Source of the DNA: Candidatus Latescibacterota bacterium
Lineage (GTDB): Bacteria > Latescibacterota > UBA2968 > GCA-2709665
Assembly: GCA_965219455.1 (NCBI GenBank)
Contig: OZ244744.1
Location: 3,040,001-3,104,000, forward strand
Direction: 5' to 3'
DNA: 64,000 nt
Part shown: in pieces, positions 2,322 to 13,356 of the stretch
Layout of the letters: each line of letters begins with the position of its first letter
Numbering within the stretch: position 1 is the first letter of the stretch
Notes under the pieces: model-generated
Databases searched by the model: none
The model's input: only the letters and a program-made list of their open reading frames with translations
What the model was told of the DNA's origin: nothing
Position numbers and translations under genes: made by a program

Positions 2322-2348
2322 CGTAAAAGGCACATGTGGGGCACTGGT

Positions 2349-5300
2349 ATGGCCGTAACGGGAATCAACAGTGAGGACAGGTTAGTCCAAGCGACGTTTG
2401 CCGGGTATCTGAAACGGCGGCTGGGCTGGGATAGCATTTATGCCTGGAACGAGGAGACTTTCGGACACGAAGGTACCCTTGGCCGTGCCGATACCAAAGA
2501 AGCGGTGCTCATCCGCGACCTGCGCGCGTCACTGGAACGTCTGAACCCCGCCCTTCCGCCCTCCGCCATCGACGATGCCATCCGCGACCTGACAGTTTAC
2601 GACGCCAGCCGCTCGATGTTGCAGCACAACCAAGATTTCTATCGGCTTATTCGTAGCGGGGTACATGTGAATTACAGGGACGCGCACGGGCACCCGAAAT
2701 CTGCCCGCGCCCGGGTGATCGATTTCGACAACAAACCCGGCTCGAACCGCTTTCTTGCCGTGCGCGAACTGAAGCTCACCGGCATCCGTACGCCTAATTA
2801 CAACCGCCGCGCCGATCTGGTCTGTTTCATTAACGGCCTCCCCCTGGTATTCATCGAACTGAAGGCGGTCTACAAAAACATCCGGGAGGGCTTCGACAAC
2901 AACCTCACAGACTACATGGACGAGAACGTCATAGCCCATGCCTTCCACCACAACACCTTCTTGATCGTGTCGAACGGCGACCGCGCACGGTACGGTTCGA
3001 TCACCAGCCAATGGGAGCATTTTGCCGAGTGGAAGCGGCTCGACGAGGGCGACAAGGGCAGCCTGGAAGCCGAGTTACTGCTGAACGGCATGCTGGCGCA
3101 AGGTCGGTTGTTGGACATCGTTGAGAATTTCATTCTGTTCGACGTGAGCAAGCCCGGCGCCACGAGGAAGGTGATCGCGCGAAACCATCAGGTACTGGGC
3201 GTCAACCGGGCGGTCGCGTCCGTGTCGCGTCAGGAAAACCTGAAACGCAAGTTCCCACCCGAACAGCGCGTGACGTATAGAGTCATGGAATTGCCGCTGG
3301 AATACCGTGAGCCGCGTCAGTACTCTCCGTCCTCAAGGATGGTCGCCGAGGCGAGGTCACCCTACATCCCAAAGGGACCGGTCGACATTATTGAGCGGGC
3401 GGATCCCGAATTGGGCCGCCTTGGGGTATTCTGGCACACACAGGGAAGCGGCAAGTCCTATTCCATGGCGTTCTTCTCCGAAAAAGTGCGTCGGAAAGTG
3501 GAGGGTAATTTCACGTTTCTGCTGATGACCGACCGAAACGACCTCGACGGTCAGATTTACACCACTTTCGTCGGTTGTGGTATCGCCGACGACAACACAC
3601 CGCGAGCCGCGTCCGGAGACCATTTGGAAAGGCTGTTAAAGGAGAATCACCGCTACGTCTTCAGTCTGATCCACAAATTCAACAAGGATGTGGACCCGAA
3701 ACAACCCTACAGCGTACGCGACGACATCATCGTGATTTCGGACGAGGCACATCGCACTCAGGCGGGGCGGCTGGCGCGAAATATGCACCTTGCACTGCCG
3801 AACGCCTCCTTCATCGGCTTCACCGGAACGCCACTCTTCAAGCAGGACGAAATCACCAAACGCATCTTCGGCAATTATGTCTCCCGTTACGATTTCAAGC
3901 GGTCCGAGGAGGACGGGGCGACAGTCAAGCTGATCTACGAGAACCGGGGAGAAAAGTTGGGTGTGGCGCGGACGGATCTTAACGACCTTATCGCGGCCAA
4001 GATCGAGCAGGCCGAGTTCGATCCTGACCAGGAAGCGTTGCTCGAGAAACTGCTCGGTCAGGACTACGAGGTCATCACTGCAGATGAACGGCTTGACAAG
4101 ATTGCGGCCGATTTCGTGGATCACTGCGCGGTCCGGTGGGAAGCGGGAAAGTCGATGCTGGTCTGCATCGACAAAATCACGTGTGCCCGCATGCTTCAGT
4201 TGATCGTTCCGCGATGGCAGGATAAGGCGGCACAGGTCCGGTCCGCCGCCGATGGGAAAAGCGCCCAAGCGAAAGCCACAAGCGACGAGATCAGCCGCGC
4301 CGCGCTTGACGAGGAGGCGCATCGGCTGGCAGCTCAAGCGATCTGGCTCGAGAATACAATCATTGAGATCATCATCAGCGAGGCGCAGAACGAGGTCAAA
4401 GACTTCGCGAAATGGGACTTCAATATCATCCCTCACCGCGCCCGTATGAAACAGGGTTTCGAGACCGCCGACGGGCAGCGGGTGGATGTAGAAACCGCGT
4501 TCAAGGACCCGGAGCATCCCTTCCGCGTCGCCATCGTCTGCGCGATGTGGATGACAGGGTTTGATGTCGAGTGCCTTTCGACGCTCTACATCGATAAGCC
4601 GATGAAGGCGCACACGCTGATGCAGGCGATCGCGCGTGCGAACCGGGTGTACCCCAGAAAGGATTTCGGCCTGATCGTGGACTACAATGGCATGCTGAAG
4701 AGTCTGCGGGAGGCGCTGGCGCAGTATGCGCTGGGCGATGACGGGACCGGTGAAGCGGAGGTCGTCGCACCGATCGAGGAGCGTGTGCAGGCGTTGATCG
4801 AGGCAATCGAGGCGACGGAGGCGCATTTGCGCGGGCTCGGCTTCGACCCTGCCACGCTCGTCGGATCAAGCGGTTTCGAGCGCATAACGGGGCTGAAAGA
4901 TGCGGTCGAGGCCGTCTATTCCAGCGACGAGGCCAAGCGCCGATTCGAGATTCTCGCCCGACAGGTGTTCATCCGCTTCAAGGCATTGCTAATGGAGCCG
5001 TCTGCCTATCCCTTTGCCGAGCGGCACGACAATATCGAGGCGATCTACAAGAAGCTGACCGAGGCGCGCGATACAGCGGACGTTACAGAACTCCTAAAGG
5101 AGTTGCATCGGATCGTCAACGAGGCAATCCGCACGCAAGCGCCTGGAGATGATCGGGCTGAGGGTCTGACCTTCGACCTCAGCCGGATCGACATGAAAAA
5201 GCTACGCGACGAATTCGCGAAGAACGTCCGACACAAGGCGACGGCGATTCAGGACATCCGAGAGATCATTGAGCAGAAGCTTGCCGAACTGCTGGCACAC

Positions 5301-5765
5301 AACCCTATGCGCATGGATTTTCAGCAGAAGTACGAGGAAATCGTCACCGCCTACAACCGGGAGAAAGACCGCGTCACAATCGAAGAAACCTTCCGTCGTT
5401 TGACGGAACTCATGGAAGAGTTGGATGAGGAGCAGAAGCGCGCAGTCGAGGAAGGACTTACTGAGGACGAACTCGCGTTGTTCGACTTGTTAAAGAAGGA
5501 TAATCTGGCAAGGACCGAACGGGAGCGCGTCAAACAGGCCAGCCGCGAACTGCTGGCGTCCATTAAGGCGCGTCTGTCGAAGCTCGATCGTTTCTGGGAA
5601 AAGGAGCAGACCAAGGCGGATGTCAAGGTGTTCATTCTAGACGAGGTTTTCACCAGCCTGCCAACGCCGCCATTTACCGTCGAGGAGAAGAACGCAGCCG
5701 CGGAAGAGATCTATGCACATGTCTGGCAGCAGGCCATCAGCGGAGAATTCGGGAGAGCGGCGTGA
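2349..5765 (+). CDS. hsdR: Type I R-M restriction subunit
   Basis: Nuclease motif 'RRADLVCFINGLPLVFIELK'; helicase motifs 'WHTQGSGKS', 'DEAHR', 'GFTGTP', 'TGFD', 'QAIARANR'. Start 2349 preferred over 2334. Confidence 0.96.
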   Translation: MAVTGINSEDRLVQATFAGYLKRRLGWDSIYAWNEETFGHEGTLGRADTKEAVLIRDLRASLERLNPALPPSAIDDAIRDLTVYDASRSMLQHNQDFYRLIRSGVHVNYRDAHGHPKSARARVIDFDNKPGSNRFLAVRELKLTGIRTPNYNRRADLVCFINGLPLVFIELKAVYKNIREGFDNNLTDYMDENVIAHAFHHNTFLIVSNGDRARYGSITSQWEHFAEWKRLDEGDKGSLEAELLLNGMLAQGRLLDIVENFILFDVSKPGATRKVIARNHQVLGVNRAVASVSRQENLKRKFPPEQRVTYRVMELPLEYREPRQYSPSSRMVAEARSPYIPKGPVDIIERADPELGRLGVFWHTQGSGKSYSMAFFSEKVRRKVEGNFTFLLMTDRNDLDGQIYTTFVGCGIADDNTPRAASGDHLERLLKENHRYVFSLIHKFNKDVDPKQPYSVRDDIIVISDEAHRTQAGRLARNMHLALPNASFIGFTGTPLFKQDEITKRIFGNYVSRYDFKRSEEDGATVKLIYENRGEKLGVARTDLNDLIAAKIEQAEFDPDQEALLEKLLGQDYEVITADERLDKIAADFVDHCAVRWEAGKSMLVCIDKITCARMLQLIVPRWQDKAAQVRSAADGKSAQAKATSDEISRAALDEEAHRLAAQAIWLENTIIEIIISEAQNEVKDFAKWDFNIIPHRARMKQGFETADGQRVDVETAFKDPEHPFRVAIVCAMWMTGFDVECLSTLYIDKPMKAHTLMQAIARANRVYPRKDFGLIVDYNGMLKSLREALAQYALGDDGTGEAEVVAPIEERVQALIEAIEATEAHLRGLGFDPATLVGSSGFERITGLKDAVEAVYSSDEAKRRFEILARQVFIRFKALLMEPSAYPFAERHDNIEAIYKKLTEARDTADVTELLKELHRIVNEAIRTQAPGDDRAEGLTFDLSRIDMKKLRDEFAKNVRHKATAIQDIREIIEQKLAELLAHNPMRMDFQQKYEEIVTAYNREKDRVTIEETFRRLTELMEELDEEQKRAVEEGLTEDELALFDLLKKDNLARTERERVKQASRELLASIKARLSKLDRFWEKEQTKADVKVFILDEVFTSLPTPPFTVEEKNAAAEEIYAHVWQQAISGEFGRAA

Positions 5766-6727
5766 TGGGCCGGGTGCCTGACCGCGACGCGGCGGGGGCT
5801 CTGGACCGCGCGAAGGGGGCGCTGGTCGGGCTCGCGCTGGGCGACGCGCTCGGCACGACGCTCGAATTCGCCGGGAGGGACACAAGGCCGCCGGTTACCG
5901 ACCTGGTGGGTGGAGGCCCGTTCGGCCTCGCCGCAGGGGAGTGGACCGACGATACGAGCATGGCCCTCTGCCTCGCGGAGTCGTTGCTTGAACGGGGCGG
6001 GCTCGACGTGAAGGACCTGATGGTACGGTTCCTCCGGTGGCGCGAGGAAGGGCATAACTCGGTCACCGGCGTGTGTTTCGATATCGGCAATGCCACCGCC
6101 GGCGCGCTCCGATCTTTTCGGGAAACCGGGGATCCGTTGAGCGGCAGCACCGATCCGCGCAGCGCCGGCAACGGTTCGCTCATGCGGCTCTCGCCGGTGG
6201 CGATCCGCTGGTGGCGCGACCGGGCGAGGGCAACGGCGGCCGCCCGCTTGCAGAGCCGAACCACGCACGGCGCCGCGCAGGCCGTGGAGGCCTGTGCGCT
6301 CTATGCCGAACTGCTGGTCGAGGCGATCGCCGGGGCGCCGAAGGAGACTGTCCTGCGCGCCAGAGACTGGAGCGGCGACGCCCAGATCGCCCGGGTGGCC
6401 GCGGGGTCGTGGCGCGCCAGGGAGCGCGACGCCATTGCGTCGTCGGGATACGTACTGCACACGTTCGAAGCGGCGCTGTGGTGCGTGGACAGATCGGAAT
6501 CCGTTGAGGACGCCCTGATTCTGGCCGCCAATCTTGCCGATGACGCCGATACGGTGGCCGCCGTCACCGGTCAGCTTGCGGGCGCGCTGTGGGGCGTGTC
6601 GGGCGCTCCCGCCGCGTGGCTCGACAAACTGGCGTGGCGCGGGCGCCTGGAAGCGCTCGCCGCCGGCCTGTTCGACGCCGCCAACAGCGAGCGGAGCGGC
6701 CCGGTGGGTGAGAAACTATCCCATTAG
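5762..6727 (+). CDS. ADP-ribosylglycohydrolase (DraG/ARH family)
   Basis: Motifs GDALG, WTDDT, GNGSLMR and DADT all intact; start overlaps the hsdR stop. Confidence 0.93.
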   Translation: MMGRVPDRDAAGALDRAKGALVGLALGDALGTTLEFAGRDTRPPVTDLVGGGPFGLAAGEWTDDTSMALCLAESLLERGGLDVKDLMVRFLRWREEGHNSVTGVCFDIGNATAGALRSFRETGDPLSGSTDPRSAGNGSLMRLSPVAIRWWRDRARATAAARLQSRTTHGAAQAVEACALYAELLVEAIAGAPKETVLRARDWSGDAQIARVAAGSWRARERDAIASSGYVLHTFEAALWCVDRSESVEDALILAANLADDADTVAAVTGQLAGALWGVSGAPAAWLDKLAWRGRLEALAAGLFDAANSERSGPVGEKLSH

Positions 6728-7642
6728 GCTTCCATACCGCAACCCCACGGCTTTCTTCACGACCTCCAGGGTTCGCTGGCCCTCGATCCTCGCCTCCGAC
6801 CCACCCAGATGCAGAACATCCCCGACCAGGCTTCGACTGCCTTCCAGCTGTGTCCCTGCGGTCCGAAACGGCTCCTGTTTGGCATCCGACTTGCCTCCCG
6901 CGGCCTGCTCCGAGCTTGCAGGCGGCAGGCTGTGATCCATGTGTGTGGTACCCATCCCCGAGGGTTCCGCATCCGTCCGCGGCGCCCGCGCCGCGCTATT
7001 CGTCCTCGTCCGAATACTCCCGTCGGCATCCGCAAGCCCAACCGTATTTGAGTGACTCATGCGTATTCCGGTATTTCCGCGGGTTCCATTCATCTGTAGG
7101 CTTTGCTCGAACCCGGGCAACGGAAAGACGGTCCCGAATTTGCGATTGAATCGACGTGCTACTTCCCGGCACAGATTCGAGCGCATCCGCTGACCGGGTC
7201 CCGCCGCCACAATCGAAGGCCGGAATAGCAACACGGCGGCCGGTTGAAAGACCGGATAACCGCCAAACCCAGGGATCGGCGAGCGACTCGCTGCATCCCG
7301 CTTCCGCCGTGCTTCCGGATCGCCCGCATGGGCCGGCAGCGGTATCGAATAATGAAGAATCATCGCCAACTCCGCGAGTTGCGGAACCTGCGACTGCAGA
7401 AAACAGACGCTTCGCTCCGGATCGAAACCCGCAGCCAGAAGATCCGTGACCAGTTTTCGAACATTCGATTCCATCTTACGTGGATGTTCCCGATCCATAC
7501 GCAACGCCTGGTAGTCGGCGATCATGAAAAAACAACGTGCTTCCGCCTCTCGACCAATCAAGTCTTTCAGGAATCCGATCAAGTGCCCCAGGATCATTCT
7601 TTCCGTTGGCCGGACACCAGCCAATACAATAGAACGTCTCAT
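6716..7642 (-). CDS. Degenerate tryptophanyl-tRNA synthetase paralogue
   Basis: Colinear with TrpRS (GVRPT..LGH, FFMIAD, LQSQVPQLAEL, REVARRFN) but HIGH=ILGH, QAAD=QPAA, GxD=GPG, KMSKS=RMSHS. Open 308-aa frame with an AAGGAG RBS. Confidence 0.8.
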   Translation of the reverse strand: MRRSIVLAGVRPTERMILGHLIGFLKDLIGREAEARCFFMIADYQALRMDREHPRKMESNVRKLVTDLLAAGFDPERSVCFLQSQVPQLAELAMILHYSIPLPAHAGDPEARRKRDAASRSPIPGFGGYPVFQPAAVLLFRPSIVAAGPGQRMRSNLCREVARRFNRKFGTVFPLPGFEQSLQMNGTRGNTGIRMSHSNTVGLADADGSIRTRTNSAARAPRTDAEPSGMGTTHMDHSLPPASSEQAAGGKSDAKQEPFRTAGTQLEGSRSLVGDVLHLGGSEARIEGQRTLEVVKKAVGLRYGSLMG

Positions 7643-7728
7643 TCTGAATACTCCTTATCTTCAAATTTCTTTTATTGGAAAACGGGTCGGCGCCCCGGGC
7701 GCCGCGTTGGGAAATGCAGTTTGCCATG

Positions 7729-7769
7729 AAAAAAAAAAGCCGCGATCCACCTCCAGGTGAACCGCGGCT
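7729..7769 (-). terminator. Intrinsic terminator of the second Trp attenuator
   Basis: Minus strand AGCCGCGGTTCAC-CTGGAG-GTGGATCGCGGCT, a 13-bp stem, followed by a run of about 10 T. Confidence 0.85.
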
Positions 7770-7857
7770 ATAGCCATACATTCAGGCACAGATCATCCGG
7801 TGGCGGACGCACGGCTCCCGTTGCGCAATACCACCAGCGCCGCATAGAAATTGCCAT
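7768..7857 (-). CDS. Trp leader peptide 2 (MAISMRRWWYCATGAVRPPPDDLCLNVWL); an in-frame ATG at 7902 gives a 44-aa form
   Basis: Tandem TGG TGG at 7836-7831, directly upstream of a terminator that precedes a TrpRS-like gene. Confidence 0.7.
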   Translation of the reverse strand: MAISMRRWWYCATGAVRPPPDDLCLNVWL

Positions 7858-7904
7858 TAATCCATCCAGAATGACGTTCCGCCGTACCATGCGTATCCTC
7901 ATAA

Positions 7905-8975
7905 TTATGGGATCTGTTGCTCCTGTTTCCGCATCCGCTCCCGGCCCTTCCTCGATATGCGGTTCCAGACACCGGTGAGCCCCATCGCTTTTTTCATTGC
8001 CTTCAACGTGTCATCGGCGACCTCTCGAACCCGTAGCGTTCCCTCGTACAGAACCTTCTCCACGTACCCGGGATCCGCTGCGTATCGCGCCCTTCGCTCC
8101 CGAATCGGGTCCAGAAAATCGTTCAGCGCCCGAGTCAGCTTCTCCTTCACCTCCACGTCGCCGACTTTCCCCGTGCGATACCTTGCCTTGAGATCCGCCA
8201 CTTCCTCCCGATTCGGGTTGAATGCGTCGTGGTAGACAAACACCGGATTCCCTTCCACATTGCCGGGGATATCGGCCCGCACCCGGTTGGGATCGGTGAA
8301 CATTCCTCGCACCTTTTTCTTAACCGTCTGTGCATCGTCAGACAGAAATATCGCATTGTCCAGGCTCTTGCTCATTTTGGCCTGGCCATCGGTACCCACA
8401 AGAACCGGGACCTCACCGATCAGGGCGTCCGGAATCGGGAAGACCTCCCCGTAGTAGCTGTTGAACCGCCGGGCAATTTCCCGGGTCACCTCCACGTGCG
8501 CCAGGTTATCCCTTCCCACGGGAACCAGGTGCGCCCGGGGCGTCATAATATCCGCCGCCTGCAAAATAGGGTATCCGACAAGCCCGAACGGGATCGCCTC
8601 GTCGTCCAACCTGGCGGCGCGGGCCATATCCTTGATGCTGGGCAGGCGCGCGACTCGCGGCAGGGTCACCAGCATCTCGAAAAACAGATTCATTTCGTAT
8701 ACCGCATGCACCGCCGACTGCAGGTATATGGTCGATCTGGACGGATCGATGCCCACCGCCAGGTAGTCCAGCAGCATCTCCCGTACGTTCTCCCGCAGGG
8801 CATGGATATGTTCCTTCTGCGGCCGGGTCGTGAGCATGTGCAGGTCCGCAACCAAAAAGAAACATTCGTATTCGTCCTGCAGCCGCACCCGGTTTTTCAA
8901 CGAGCCGACGTAATGTCCCAGGTGCATCCTCCCCGTGGGCCGGTCTCCCGTCAGGATCCGTTTCCGTTCGTCCAT
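7905..8975 (-). CDS. trpS: Tryptophan--tRNA ligase
   Basis: TGDRPTG, HLGH, YPILQAADI and KMSKS intact; GGAGGG RBS before ATG 8975. Confidence 0.97.
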   Translation of the reverse strand: MDERKRILTGDRPTGRMHLGHYVGSLKNRVRLQDEYECFFLVADLHMLTTRPQKEHIHALRENVREMLLDYLAVGIDPSRSTIYLQSAVHAVYEMNLFFEMLVTLPRVARLPSIKDMARAARLDDEAIPFGLVGYPILQAADIMTPRAHLVPVGRDNLAHVEVTREIARRFNSYYGEVFPIPDALIGEVPVLVGTDGQAKMSKSLDNAIFLSDDAQTVKKKVRGMFTDPNRVRADIPGNVEGNPVFVYHDAFNPNREEVADLKARYRTGKVGDVEVKEKLTRALNDFLDPIRERRARYAADPGYVEKVLYEGTLRVREVADDTLKAMKKAMGLTGVWNRISRKGRERMRKQEQQIP

Positions 8976-8988
8976 TGCGATTCCCTCC

Positions 8989-9021
8989 AAAACAAAAATC
9001 CCCGCCGTGGACCGGCAGGGA
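8989..9021 (-). terminator. Intrinsic terminator of the trpS attenuator
   Basis: Minus strand TCCCTGCCG-GTCCA-CGGCGGGGA followed by TTTTTGTTTT, just before the trpS RBS. Confidence 0.85.
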
Positions 9022-9050
9022 CGCTCATCTCTTGACTTTGAATCCTTTGT

Positions 9051-9128
9051 TCAGCACGCAGGCAGCCGGTCGGTACGATGGGTATCGTACCGCCACCAGC
9101 TTCTGGAAATTTCAATGTGCGCAGCCAT
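9051..9128 (-). CDS. Trp leader peptide 1 (MAAHIEISRSWWRYDTHRTDRLPAC)
   Basis: 25-aa ORF with an AAGGA RBS, tandem Trp codons at 9098-9093, and mutually exclusive protector, antiterminator and terminator pairings. Confidence 0.85.
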   Translation of the reverse strand: MAAHIEISRSWWRYDTHRTDRLPAC

Positions 9129-9166
9129 CTCTTTTTCCTTTAGACAGAATTGTGAGGAACCGGTCA

Positions 9167-9195
9167 ACGATATCGAATTCTCATTCCCCTGTCAA
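9167..9195 (-). promoter_or_regulatory. Sigma70-type promoter for the trp leader/trpS
   Basis: TTGACA (9195-9190), 17 nt, TATCGT (9172-9167). Confidence 0.7.
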
Positions 9196-9247
9196 GCAAA
9201 TTCTGCTTTTTCCGGTTTCTCCACGTGCGATTCGTCCGACGCAACGG

Positions 9248-10240
9248 CTACGTCCCGTCCCTCAACAGTTGCGCCATTTCCACGGCAAAGTAGGTCAGAA
9301 TCATATCCGCGCCCGCCCGCTTGATGGACGTCAGCGTTTCGACCATGGCGCGCTCCTTTTCCACCCATCCCCGCTGTGCGGCCGCCAGGACCATCCCGTA
9401 TTCGCCGGACACGTTGTACGCCGCAATGGGCGTGTCGAAACTCTCCTTCGCCCTTGCGATGACGTCGAGGTACGGCAGCGCCGGTTTCACCATCACCACG
9501 TCGGCTCCTTCCTGGATATCCAGTGCGATCTCTTTCATCGCTTCCCGAACGTTCGCCGGATCCATTTGATACGTCTTCTTGTCCTTTGGTACGCCACGGG
9601 CCTTCACCGGCGCGGACTTCAGCGCCCCTCTGAAGGGACCGTAGAAGCAGGATGCATATTTGGCGGAATAGGCCATAATGCCAACGTTGCGGAACCCAAG
9701 GTCGTCCAGCGCCACCCGGATGGCGCCAACGCGGCCGTCCATCATGTCCGACGGCGTCACCCAATCCACACCTGCTTCGGCGTGGGACAACGACATTCTG
9801 CACAGCACCCCGACACTCTCGTCGTTGGCGATCTCTCCGTCGATCAGCAGCCCGTCGTGCCCGTGCGTGGTATACGGATCCAGCGCCACGTCGGTCTGCA
9901 CGCAGAGGTCGGGAAGCGCAGCCTTCAGCGCCCGGACCGCCCTCTGGATCAACCCGTCCGGCTTGTACGCCATCGTGGCGCGCTCGTCCTTCTCCTCCGA
10001 ATAGCCGAACAGGTTCACGCCGCAGATTCCCAGGCCGAACACCGTCTCGCATTCCCGTACGAGTTCGTCGACCGAAAACCGGAACTGCCCCGGCATCGAG
10101 TCAATCGGCTCCCGCACGTTAACGCCTTCCGTGACAAACATGGGATAGATCAGATCCCCTGCGTTCAATACGGTTTCCCTGACCAGTGTCCGAATGGGCT
10201 CCGTGCGTCTCAACCGGCGGGGCCGATAGGTCAGTTCCAT
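9248..10240 (-). CDS. hemB: Porphobilinogen synthase (Asp-rich, non-zinc type)
   Basis: RPRRLRR, DVALDPYTTHGHDG, SDMMDGR, YSAKY, YGPFR, MVKP, AYNVSGEY. Confidence 0.97.
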   Translation of the reverse strand: MELTYRPRRLRRTEPIRTLVRETVLNAGDLIYPMFVTEGVNVREPIDSMPGQFRFSVDELVRECETVFGLGICGVNLFGYSEEKDERATMAYKPDGLIQRAVRALKAALPDLCVQTDVALDPYTTHGHDGLLIDGEIANDESVGVLCRMSLSHAEAGVDWVTPSDMMDGRVGAIRVALDDLGFRNVGIMAYSAKYASCFYGPFRGALKSAPVKARGVPKDKKTYQMDPANVREAMKEIALDIQEGADVVMVKPALPYLDVIARAKESFDTPIAAYNVSGEYGMVLAAAQRGWVEKERAMVETLTSIKRAGADMILTYFAVEMAQLLRDGT

Positions 10241-11253: not shown

Positions 11254-13356
11254 CTATTCAGTAGACTTCGGGAACAGAACAATCGGTGGACCCACGGCGG
11301 TCAGGATACCGTGGTAGTTTGTGTAGCCATCATCTCGCACTGGAATTTCGGGCGCAGCGCCCGGACTCACCGTCGTCGGTTCGCTCCCGGTCCGGGTCAC
11401 GACAAAGGACTCGCTCTCGATGTGCCCCTTCAGAATAGTCGCCGTCGAGTCGGAAATGCTACCTGCTTGTACCGCCAGATTGACGGTCATATCGAAAGGG
11501 GCGCCCTCCGCGACCCGGGCGACCACCGTCGCCGGTCCTGGCGCGGATGTGTTCAGGTTGTCGGTGCGCTCCAACTCTATCGTCAACGTAAAGGGAGCCC
11601 CCGGGTTATTGCCAATCGATAACAACCCCAGGTTGTACAGACCAGAGAACATGCCCTCGGGTAGCGTGCTCAAATTGTTGTCACTAAGCACAAGTGCGCG
11701 CAGGCTGTCAAGGCCCGAGAACGCAGCCGCAGGCAGAGCTATCAGACTGTTGTTAAATAGCCAGACCGCTTGCAACTTCTTCAGGCCCGAGAATACGCCC
11801 TCAGGCAACGTCGTCAGTTCGTTTTCGCTGAGCATCAGAACTCGCAAATTGGAAAGGCCGGAAAAAGCGCCTCCTTGTACCGTGCTTATAGCGTTTCGAA
11901 AAAGCGACAGCGTTTCCAGCCTACCCATCCCATTGAATACACCGTCAACCAGTGTACCCAATTCGTTATCTTCCAGCATCAGGGTGCGCACGCTGTTAAG
12001 GCCGGCAAACGCACCCGCTGGCAGTGTGTGCAGGACATTTTTCCGTAGTTCCAGTCTTTCCAGACGGGTTTGGTCGGAAAACAGACCCGCAGGCAGCGTG
12101 CCCAGAGCATTTGCATCAAGAAACAGGCTGCGAAGTGCAGACAGGCCGGCAAAGACACCCACCGGCAGTGATTCCAGGTTGTTGTTTTTGAACACCAGCG
12201 TACGCAGGCTGTCCAATCCGGAAAACATACCTACCGGCAGCGCACTGAGAGAATTGTTCTTCAGGCTGAGCCTTCGTAGACTGGCCAGATCGCTGAAGAT
12301 GCCTTCAGGCAGCGTTTCCAGATTGTTTCCGGATAGCGCCAATCCCCTCAAATTGGACAATCCTGAAAACGCACCTTCGGGCAGCGACGTCAGTCTGTTG
12401 TAGCGAAGCTCCAGGATCTTCAGGCTGTCCAGGCCTGCAAATGTACCTTCCGGAAGCGTCGTGAGATCATTGCTGGAAAGCTCCAGACCCTTCAGATTAG
12501 AGAGGTTGGCGAAATCACCTTCCCGAAAGCCGTTAATGCACTCGTAAACCAGAACCAGGCCCTGGATCGACGCGAGGTGCTCCCGTGTTACGAGGGCGCA
12601 ATTGTCCACGTCCGATAGCGCTCTCAGGATGGCGTGGCGCACCTGTGACGTCCGGCCGCAAATTGCGCCATTGCTCTCGCCTACCAGCTTTCCGAAATTA
12701 CCCGCAAAGATTACGAAATCGCCAAATCCAACGGTGTCATCGTCGTCCAGATCAAATCCCGCATCAAACTGCTCATCGCCAGACGATCTACCAAACGCGC
12801 CGGCGAAGGCGATGAAATCTGCAAATCCTACCCGTCCATCGCCGTCAAAATCCGATGCAACGGCACCTTCAGGTCCAGTGTCATCGACATAGTCGGGACA
12901 GTATCCCAGGGTGCCGATCTGATTGGGTTCCGCGAATTCGACTCCCGGAAGGTGTTGCAGTTCTTCGGATATCGCTGCCCGGTCCGCGCCATGGGGAAAT
13001 CTTATCTTGTATGTTCTGCTGGATTCTGCGTCAGGAAATACTTTAATCAAAATCTCCGGCGCGTGCCTGTCGAGCGCATTCCTTAGAGCCGGATGGACAT
13101 TCTCGAATTCGTGCCATTGCGCAACGGTCTTACCTTCCGGAAAGTCCATGATTCCGGGCGCGACCGCGATCAGTACTTCCCGGGCGGCGTCCTCGAGTGT
13201 CGACAGCAGAGCCGCAGGGGTCTCACTCGGCGGCACATAGGGACGCTGCGTGTCGTTGGACGCGGATAGATCTGCATACCATACGAGAATAAGACCCAGC
13301 ACGACGATGCAGAATGGCAGGGAAAGGAGAACCGGGATGTTCGAAGCAGATTTCAT
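11254..13356 (-). CDS. Exported leucine-rich repeat protein with a dockerin-like EF-hand pair
   Basis: N-terminal hydrophobic segment; DFDGDGRVGFADF and DLDDDDTVGFGDF; 13 tandem 24-aa LRRs (LxxLPxGxFxGLxxLxxLxLxxN). Confidence 0.92.
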   Translation of the reverse strand: MKSASNIPVLLSLPFCIVVLGLILVWYADLSASNDTQRPYVPPSETPAALLSTLEDAAREVLIAVAPGIMDFPEGKTVAQWHEFENVHPALRNALDRHAPEILIKVFPDAESSRTYKIRFPHGADRAAISEELQHLPGVEFAEPNQIGTLGYCPDYVDDTGPEGAVASDFDGDGRVGFADFIAFAGAFGRSSGDEQFDAGFDLDDDDTVGFGDFVIFAGNFGKLVGESNGAICGRTSQVRHAILRALSDVDNCALVTREHLASIQGLVLVYECINGFREGDFANLSNLKGLELSSNDLTTLPEGTFAGLDSLKILELRYNRLTSLPEGAFSGLSNLRGLALSGNNLETLPEGIFSDLASLRRLSLKNNSLSALPVGMFSGLDSLRTLVFKNNNLESLPVGVFAGLSALRSLFLDANALGTLPAGLFSDQTRLERLELRKNVLHTLPAGAFAGLNSVRTLMLEDNELGTLVDGVFNGMGRLETLSLFRNAISTVQGGAFSGLSNLRVLMLSENELTTLPEGVFSGLKKLQAVWLFNNSLIALPAAAFSGLDSLRALVLSDNNLSTLPEGMFSGLYNLGLLSIGNNPGAPFTLTIELERTDNLNTSAPGPATVVARVAEGAPFDMTVNLAVQAGSISDSTATILKGHIESESFVVTRTGSEPTTVSPGAAPEIPVRDDGYTNYHGILTAVGPPIVLFPKSTE

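Follow-up and report, generated by a model that had tools for sequence, protein, structure and literature searches.

Attenuation of transcription by leader peptides is textbook knowledge, and attenuators before aminoacyl-tRNA synthetase (aaRS) genes, auxiliary tryptophanyl-tRNA synthetases (TrpRS) and non-catalytic aaRS paralogues are each already known. According to the accessible part of one report, classical attenuators are predicted upstream of trpS and trpS2 in Streptomyces, and also of pheST in gamma-proteobacteria (PMC1262725); the available excerpt on the Salmonella mgtCBR leader describes tandem attenuators with a pair of short open reading frames (ORFs), whose translation controls transcription into the coding region (PMC3641672). 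Auxiliary TrpRS enzymes such as Deinococcus radiodurans TrpRS II (structures 2a4m/1yi8) and Streptomyces coelicolor TrpRS1 are active in aminoacylation, and the accessible sections of a review cover the indolmycin resistance of TrpRS1, as well as two examples of non-catalytic aaRS paralogues, namely HisZ, which serves ATP phosphoribosyltransferase as its regulatory subunit, and the double TyrRS of trypanosomatids, a pseudo-dimer (PMC9437257). Here we analyse a stretch of 64,000 nt from a Candidatus Latescibacterota bacterium (GCA_965219455.1, contig OZ244744.1, forward-strand positions 3,040,001-3,104,000; hereafter the window, to which coordinates refer), in which a trpS operon is very probably controlled by two ribosome-mediated Trp attenuators in series, as judged from their sequence features, and in which the second gene, a TrpRS paralogue with eroded catalytic motifs, is likely to be a retained non-catalytic protein. 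We put the probability that both parts of this reading hold together at about 0.6.

The locus was compared with the genomes of 40 relatives plus one representative per species; f1 and g1 denote the family and genus of the window, f2 its sister family, and L- and G-numbers loci and genomes. An earlier note on this DNA had read, on the minus strand, a promoter, a leader, a terminator, trpS, a second leader, a second terminator and a paralogue, and all of these elements are present in that order and at the positions it gave. The operon lies on the minus strand after hemB (10384-9248, minus strand, PF00490), from which it is separated by a putative promoter, TTGACA-17 nt-TATCGT (9195-9167, 10/12 consensus matches). 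This was the sole promoter-like site in a consensus scan of 6400-9700, a result that is not significant alone given a mean of 1.2 in shuffled sequences, and the promoter-like sequence is kept upstream of leader 1 in relatives. The housekeeping TrpRS gene, trpS, encodes 356 amino acids (aa) (8975-7905 from ATG 8975, the ORF list starting at TTG 8990; PF00579, E 1.3e-78), and the paralogue 308 aa (7642-6716; PF00579, E 5.1e-21, residues 2-223), preceded by AAGGAG at 7656-7651. PF00579 has three matches in the 5.84-Mb single-contig genome, namely TyrRS, trpS and the paralogue, of which trpS, retaining HLGH and KMSKS, is the only intact TrpRS.

The first leader has the anatomy of a trp-type attenuator. 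Leader ORF 1 (9128-9051, minus strand; 25 codons, MAAHIEISRSWWRYDTHRTDRLPAC) has AAAGGA upstream, Trp-Trp codons at 9098-9093 and a TGA stop. Directly 3' of the Trp codons, GGTACGAT/ATCGTACC can form hairpin 1:2 (9091-9072), next to a strand, GACCGGC (9071-9065), that is complementary to GCCGGTC within terminator 1 (9022-8988, with the stem at 9022-8998 followed by a T-run), which ends about 13 nt before the trpS ATG. The same promoter, ORF, hairpins and terminator are found upstream of trpS and downstream of hemB across f1. An ORF of ATG, 23-31 codons, Trp-Trp or Trp-Trp-Trp and a conserved TGA, with a purine-rich site (AAGGA/GGAG-type) upstream, was seen in 15 of the 16 aligned sequences, one of them reading Trp-Arg-Trp; the sixteenth is incomplete at its extracted end. 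Among the 16 sequences, the hairpin after the Trp codons is paired in 85% of cells with four of its eight pairs changed on both sides, and terminator 1 in 95% without covariation. The GACCGGC:GCCGGTC antiterminator helix is paired in 96% of cells, compared with 3-55% in slid controls, and has one covarying pair (G-C to A-U). By eye, an uncounted extension of the hairpin takes in the second UGG and part of GACCGGC. Leader 1 combines an ORF with start, ribosome-binding site (RBS) and tandem Trp codons, an intrinsic terminator and an exclusive antiterminator with covariation, and is a predicted classical 1:2 / 2:3 / 3:4 attenuator of the trpL type.

Two relatives differ in this region. In L029 (G019, genus g2), leader ORF 1 and hairpin 1:2 are apparently deleted, leaving a promoter-like site and terminator directly before trpS; this could be a true deletion, which would place trpS behind an unopposed terminator, or an assembly error. 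In L081 (G014), an insertion of about 150 nt separates terminator 1 from the start of trpS.

The second leader was studied in 32 loci (the window and L034-L064), with three further loci of genera g5 and g9 checked by eye. Its core stands upstream of the paralogue in 32/32 loci and in the three others. In the window, leader ORF 2 (..MAISMRRWWYCATGAVRPPPDDLCLNVWL, minus strand, to 7768) begins 2 nt (ATG 7902) or 14 nt (ATG 7890) past the trpS stop, carries Trp-Trp at 7836-7831 and Pro-Pro-Pro-Asp at 7806-7795, and ends at TAG 7770-7768, which overlaps the foot of terminator 2 (7769-7728; a 14-bp stem at 7769-7738 followed by T10). The layout in the relatives is an ATG, 7-18 codons, Trp-Trp(-Trp), 6-8 codons and Pro-Pro-Pro, usually followed by Asp. 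A script found the in-frame Trp-Trp(-Trp) and Pro-Pro-Pro in 30/32 ORFs, its two misses being artefacts of an earlier out-of-frame TGGTGG in sequences that otherwise resemble their neighbours; one locus has Pro-Gln-Pro. The peptide before the Trp codons is wholly different between lineages, and the frame is kept, with indels and changes of loop length in multiples of three. Terminator 2 is paired in 99% of cells over its inner 10 bp, with two pairs changed on both sides among the 32 sequences. Leader 2 therefore also presents an ORF with start, RBS and tandem Trp codons, and an intrinsic terminator before the gene.

A feature peculiar to leader 2 is that its Trp codons pair with its Pro codons, the UGGUGG(UGG):CCACC(ACC) helix being paired in 88% of cells. 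This hairpin shows no covariation, and none is possible because its bases are fixed by the codons. In L034, L036 and L062, synonymous changes in the Pro codons weaken the pairing and Pro-Pro-Pro is retained, a small hint that the peptide itself may also matter. A polyproline pause could, on this layout, take the place of the stop codon of classical attenuators. When the pre-terminator transcript was folded with the Trp codons masked, before the 3' arm of the terminator emerges, the freed segment paired with the terminator 5' arm in 10/10 leaders folded. The predicted segment is clade-specific, GGGAGCCGUGCG in g1 and CCGG-AUAUC-UGGCG in f2, and in both clades it lies less than a ribosome footprint away from the Pro codons and would therefore be covered by a ribosome past the Trp codons.

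Several further observations weigh against this scheme at leader 2, besides the missing covariation of its Trp:Pro hairpin. Plain minimum free energy (MFE) folding with the Trp codons masked left terminator 2 standing in 7/7 leaders and gave no antiterminator, so antitermination at leader 2 would have to be kinetic. The two clade-specific antiterminators are paired in 84% and 65% of cells, with no covariation beyond that of shuffles. The ORF reaches the terminator in the window and runs through it in most relatives, and termination in Trp-replete cells therefore needs the extra assumption of a ribosome that lags behind the polymerase; in the accessible part of a published study, a terminator located a few bases past a stop codon was repressed by the ribosome (PMC4824070). 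Contigs from four metatranscriptome runs (8-9% of sampled words) come from relatives that are 90-95% (about 92%) identical and cover the leader 1/trpS part; none of them reaches the paralogue and, being from other organisms, they have no bearing on expression here.

In L034, L036, L046, L048 and most f2 loci, leader ORF 2 continues in frame through the terminator, whose GGUGG is read as Trp (..PRATGRWRAFF.. or ..WRWPRFTWKWIAAF..). In several leader 2 ORFs, a further Trp codon stands in frame 8-25 nt ahead of the terminator stem.

The pairing of UGGUGG with CCACC, and the recurrence of GGUGG in terminator 2, would also suit a quite different control, in which tRNA(Trp) or a protein, for instance TrpRS or the paralogue, binds the leaders directly, in the manner of a T-box or of the ThrRS operator, with the Trp codons a by-product of base pairing. 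The lack of covariation support for the leader 2 antiterminator fits such binding, as does a small hairpin with an ACCACC loop and one covarying pair, which, together with the terminator, was all that RNAalifold recovered from the trimmed leader 2 alignment, where the Trp region was mis-registered. We nevertheless consider direct binding very improbable. A scan of 6400-9700 against Rfam with E up to 10 returned no T-box or other family, its best hit, a Burkholderia small RNA at E 0.34, being at chance level. Both leaders have an ATG and a purine-rich upstream site, and both keep their frames across differing peptides with loop changes in multiples of three. The synonymous Pro changes described above break the pairing and keep the peptide, and leader 1 fits the three-helix scheme with covariation. 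Trp, Tyr and Phe are, in addition, abundant in the leader of the trp cluster of the same genome. This cluster (trpE-G-D-C-F / tyrS / trpB-A, the gene names being guesses from ORF sizes and one Pfam match, trpA) lies outside the window; upstream of its trpE-like ORF at 2220926 (G000:C1:2220480-2220930) we found a promoter-like TTGACA site, a short ORF with many of these residues (..YGFSWRGYFYRSYRWYYRE..) and a hairpin followed by T9. It looks like an attenuator sensing several aromatic amino acids, and leader-peptide control would therefore be in use elsewhere in this genome.

In the favoured reading, ribosome-mediated attenuation at both leaders would act in a serial arrangement. The earlier note had proposed two Trp-codon leader/terminator units in series, and its proposal is borne out: leader 2 starts at the trpS stop, and the consensus scan of 6400-9700 found no second promoter-like site between trpS and the paralogue, so the polymerase should have to read through both terminators for the paralogue to be expressed. 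The further suggestion that the two leaders are not recent copies of each other agrees with nhmmer searches, in which the model of either leader matched only itself in the whole genome. In f2, trpS follows an HNH-like gene and has no leader; the paralogue has its own TTGACA promoter and then two tandem Trp-Trp leader/terminator units in 20/25 loci (e.g. L040:2060-2500). The first of these, leader A, has a Trp-Trp ORF distinct from that of the second and its own terminator; homology of leader A to leader 1 was considered and not established, with nhmmer E values of only 0.035-0.76. Two predicted checkpoints before the paralogue are, in these families, a conserved theme.

In the mechanism that we favour, transcription would start at the promoter after hemB. 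Shortage of Trp-tRNA(Trp) would stall the ribosome on the Trp-Trp codons of leader 1 and cover the 5' arm of hairpin 1:2, GACCGGC would be freed to pair with GCCGGTC of terminator 1, and RNA polymerase would enter trpS, giving homeostatic feedback on charging capacity. At leader 2, a ribosome stalled on Trp-Trp would free the segment beside the Pro codons, which would pair with the 5' arm of terminator 2; a ribosome past the Trp codons would instead sit on that segment, perhaps slowed by Pro-Pro-Pro-Asp, and terminator 2 would form. Since both checkpoints must be passed, the paralogue would be made only at pronounced Trp-tRNA shortage. Its product would be kept as a folded Rossmann core with a C-terminal helical hairpin.

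Between terminator 2 and the RBS of the paralogue lies a GC-rich hairpin, GCGGCGCC CGG GGCGCCG.. (7705-7686, minus strand), which is kept in L005-L007; it may act as a further, weak terminator, or it may serve processing or stability. Directly 3' of this conserved hairpin (minus strand) stands CCCGTTTT.

The paralogue itself shares 30% identity with trpS of the window. Twenty intact TrpRS share 105 invariant columns, of which it keeps 56 and has 49 changed. Among the changes are the HIGH His, the Asp residues of GxDQ and QAAD and both KMSKS lysines, these four motifs reading ILGH, GPGQ, QPAA and RMSHS, respectively. The GxDQ motif and the Asp of QAAD have roles in ATP and indole binding. The HIGH position, which is HLGH in 20/20 intact sequences, reads NLGH, ILRH, HRGH or HQRD in the other five g1 copies; the Asp of the QAAD motif is kept in these five and lost in the window. 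The anticodon-binding stretch (alignment columns 191-294) has 33 columns that are invariant in intact enzymes, of which the window copy keeps nine, the other 24 being changed or absent. An AlphaFold2 (AF2) model of the window protein gave a confident Rossmann core and two C-terminal helices (253-307), with residues 104-128 and 182-253 below 50 in predicted local confidence (pLDDT) and predicted to be disordered; RMSHS lies in a stretch that combines this low pLDDT with a ratio of nonsynonymous to synonymous substitution (dN/dS) not different from 1. Foldseek searches with the model returned TrpRS structures as best matches (E ~1e-11). Compared with a functional class I TrpRS, the window protein has the PF00579 Rossmann domain and lacks HIGH, KMSKS, GxDQ/QAAD and a complete anticodon-binding domain, and from these losses it is predicted to be incapable of tRNA aminoacylation. 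These proteins, where they are named in databases, are called 'tryptophan--tRNA ligase', an annotation that would lead metabolic reconstruction astray in these uncultured bacteria.

A survey of the 32 loci, and an alignment of the paralogues from 22 loci of relatives and the window with three trpS sequences, revealed several forms. Thirteen loci encode full-length proteins (~332 aa) with HLGH, GPDQ, KMGKS and four Cys, and one a four-Cys protein of 327 aa without a match to the KMSKS pattern. Twelve encode deleted forms of 233-248 aa, in which an in-frame deletion has taken out the KMSKS loop with the Cys segment and the greater part of the anticodon-binding domain, and most of which have HLGH; the other six, all of g1 and including the window, are eroded forms of 269-308 aa that keep the full span and have eroded catalytic motifs. 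Genera g5 and g9 have additional forms of both the deleted and the eroded kind. At least five distinct deletion junctions were recognised, every one in frame. In a tree of 36 paralogues from a quick search, the 248-aa deleted forms and their full-length neighbours make up a polytomy, a topology compatible with one or with several origins of that junction.

The full-length forms have D. radiodurans TrpRS II as best match (E 4e-88) and carry C-x20-C-x6-C-x2-C at about residues 235-265 (L037-L045, L047, L049, L050, L055, L056), the four Cys aligning with those of Thermotoga maritima TrpRS (2g36), which holds a [4Fe-4S] cluster. Housekeeping trpS has no Cys there, and the dead forms have this very segment deleted or eroded. 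The paralogue is therefore best described, from its alignments, as a putative degenerate member of an auxiliary TrpRS lineage of the D. radiodurans TrpRS II / T. maritima four-Cys type. This lineage appears to be phylum-wide and attenuator-controlled. On several occasions, through either in-frame deletion or erosion, it seems to have shed the KMSKS loop, the Cys cluster and the greater part of the anticodon-binding domain.

The deleted forms of f2 retain HLGH, GPDQ and QAAD, as would be expected if the eroded or truncated paralogues were a sink or sensor for Trp analogues that inhibit TrpRS (of the indolmycin or chuangxinmycin type) or for Trp or Trp-AMP, giving resistance by titration and not by a resistant enzyme. 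Induction through a Trp attenuator would suit such a role, being the logic reported, in the accessible parts of these sources, for antibiotic-resistant auxiliary TrpRS (PMC1262725, PMC9437257). The pocket residues are, however, altered in the window (ILGH, GPGQ, QPAA), the HIGH position differs again in the other g1 copies, and the ORF list of the window includes no biosynthetic or resistance genes noted nearby. A ligand sink is on these grounds quite unlikely.

Selection on the paralogue was estimated from pairwise dN/dS values by the Nei-Gojobori method (NG86), for which the far pairs are near saturation. Over the whole gene, dN/dS is 0.28-0.46 in 15 pairs of six g1 species. By segment, the ratio is 0.27-0.47 in the first 177 codons and 0.07-0.37 in the last 53, and for each of these two the bootstrap 95% limits stay below 1 in 8/8 pairs; in the middle 78 codons (46-58 aligned) it is 0.46-2.2, with bootstrap limits that span 1. 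In f2, the median dN/dS over 236 shared codons is 0.10 for full-length and 0.12 for deleted paralogues (45 pairs each). The neutral stretch of the g1 gene is the segment deleted in other lineages, and loss of the catalytic loop has therefore not freed these genes from selection. The earlier note had described the second gene as having eroded catalytic motifs, an open frame and a strong RBS, and these hold up, with AAGGAG conserved and the frame under purifying selection. It had also taken intact HIGH/KMSKS in orthologues, together with a dN/dS near 1 on this branch, as the sign of simple decay; distant orthologues with both motifs intact do exist, yet dN/dS on this branch is well below 1. By these measures the paralogue does not appear to be a pseudogene.

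Retention of the gene for a function of its product has nevertheless to be weighed against contrary evidence. Only five of the 14 other g1 genomes have the paralogue, and nine are without it. In four of the gene-less genomes that were inspected, three kinds of deletion remnant were recognised: G014 has leader 2 and terminator 2 intact directly before the convergent neighbour, with the paralogue gone; G013, the closest relative, has half of leader 2; and G002 and G008 have about 40 nt each. The paralogue is dispensable in these species. Its dN/dS is 4-6 times that of trpS (0.05-0.09 in the same species pairs), and its middle third evolves neutrally. The window copy is the most eroded and least constrained member of the lineage.

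The absences, the remnants, the raised dN/dS and the neutral middle would be expected if the g1 paralogue were a relic whose activity has been lost and whose selection has been relaxed, the frame being kept by inertia or because its translation helps the transcript; such a gene would have no function of its own, and leader 2 would act mainly as the trpS terminator. The two stretches predicted to be disordered, and the 49 changed residues at otherwise invariant positions, point the same way. Against a relic, all six g1 copies are open with only in-frame indels at dS (synonymous divergence) of up to ~1, and the limits for both the N- and the C-terminal segments lie below 1 in every pair tested. 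The constrained last 53 codons lie downstream of the neutral stretch, so the frame must have been kept through it. Moreover, the dead deleted forms of f2 are as constrained as the full-length ones, and the strong AAGGAG site is conserved. We therefore regard the relic as doubtful, though it is the most serious competitor to retention of a non-catalytic protein.

The deletions of the paralogue in the sister species end near the convergent gene for an ADP-ribosylglycohydrolase (5762-6727; PF03747, E 1.1e-68), the end of which overlaps the 3' end of the window paralogue by 12 nt (6716-6727).

As to what a retained non-catalytic protein would do, structure prediction offers a tentative answer, that it may serve as a non-catalytic dimer partner of TrpRS or of itself. 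We hold this best guess with low confidence, the alternatives being a ligand sink, no function at all or something unforeseen. The predicted TrpRS-paralogue complex had a score of 0.70, compared with 0.00 for the best of three controls, with contact agreement between runs of at least 74% and a partner pLDDT of at least 61; it passed the mark of the prediction tool, which 58/80 solved complexes and 2/110 mismatched pairs had reached. On the roles that the earlier note proposed, a decoy, a heterodimer partner or a tRNA-binding regulator, this predicted complex is the one result with a bearing. The predicted interface involves residues 44-58, 82-104, 123-132 and 296-306 of the paralogue. Some caution is needed here, as the pass may reflect memory of solved TrpRS homodimers. 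The interface is not enriched in conserved positions (11/37 invariant, compared with 53/174 in the rest of the structured part), and one part of it, residues 123-132, lies in a segment that is disordered in the AF2 model.

A more specific and unlikely proposal is that the dead copies act as 'anti-TrpRS' subunits. TrpRS, a class Ic enzyme, binds its tRNA across the dimer, and a heterodimer with a partner that has no KMSKS loop and no anticodon-binding domain would therefore be inactive in charging. Made at Trp-tRNA shortage, the paralogue would then lower charging further, giving a positive-feedback switch into growth arrest or dormancy. If true, the need for a tight off state would explain two attenuators in series, and the proposal would also explain why catalytic parts are lost repeatedly from a protein whose fold and C-terminal helices remain selected.

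Elsewhere in the window, reading of the translations gave names to two further ORFs, one of 1143 aa that resembles the R subunit of a type I restriction enzyme (2334-5765, plus strand), and one for a 700-aa leucine-rich-repeat protein with a signal-like N-terminus (11254-13356, minus strand).

Literature searches found no publication on Latescibacterota TrpRS and no attenuator element of this kind in print for the phylum, and among the titles and abstracts they returned none describes a dead TrpRS copy under an attenuator. As far as these searches reach, what is new is that two predicted serial Trp checkpoints and a hairpin between Trp and Pro codons are combined with a lineage in which catalytic parts are shed again and again while selection continues. 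Two serial Trp attenuators, whether flanking trpS or in tandem, would represent a natural two-checkpoint design with a measurable dose-response. A lineage that discards the catalytic loop, the Cys cluster and the anticodon-binding domain, and is yet under selection as strong as that on the intact enzyme (dN/dS ~0.1), is a natural experiment on an aaRS core without charging. Because the window copy is so eroded and so little constrained, a deleted f2 form is probably the best experimental entry point.

Compared with described attenuators, both leaders resemble those predicted for Streptomyces trpS and trpS2, so far as these are set out in the accessible part of that report, in placing, immediately before an aaRS gene, an intrinsic terminator, alternative hairpins and a short ORF whose Trp codons are in tandem. 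Unlike classical trp attenuators, two units here stand in series on one transcript, before and after trpS, and leader 2 pairs its Trp codons with Pro codons of the same frame and has an ORF that finishes at the terminator or crosses it, with no stop between regions 1 and 2. The mgtCBR leader likewise uses two short translated ORFs to set transcription into a gene. Its two ORFs sense different signals, whereas both units here carry Trp codons, with the whole essential trpS between them in g1 and a direct tandem in f2.

Compared with described proteins, the paralogue is, like D. radiodurans TrpRS II and S. coelicolor TrpRS1 in the accessible accounts of them, a second and, by prediction, conditionally expressed TrpRS gene beside a housekeeping one. 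Unlike them, the window copy has no HIGH, GxDQ, Trp-binding Asp or KMSKS, and in 12/32 loci an in-frame deletion has removed the loop together with most of the anticodon-binding domain. The four Cys of T. maritima TrpRS have their counterparts in the full-length paralogues, and the window has a neutral low-complexity stretch instead. With HisZ and the double TyrRS, the paralogue shares an aaRS catalytic fold without aminoacylation motifs and a presumed role through protein-protein contact; it differs from both in being derived from TrpRS, in its predicted regulation by Trp attenuators, and in the repeated and independent loss of catalytic parts within one phylum.

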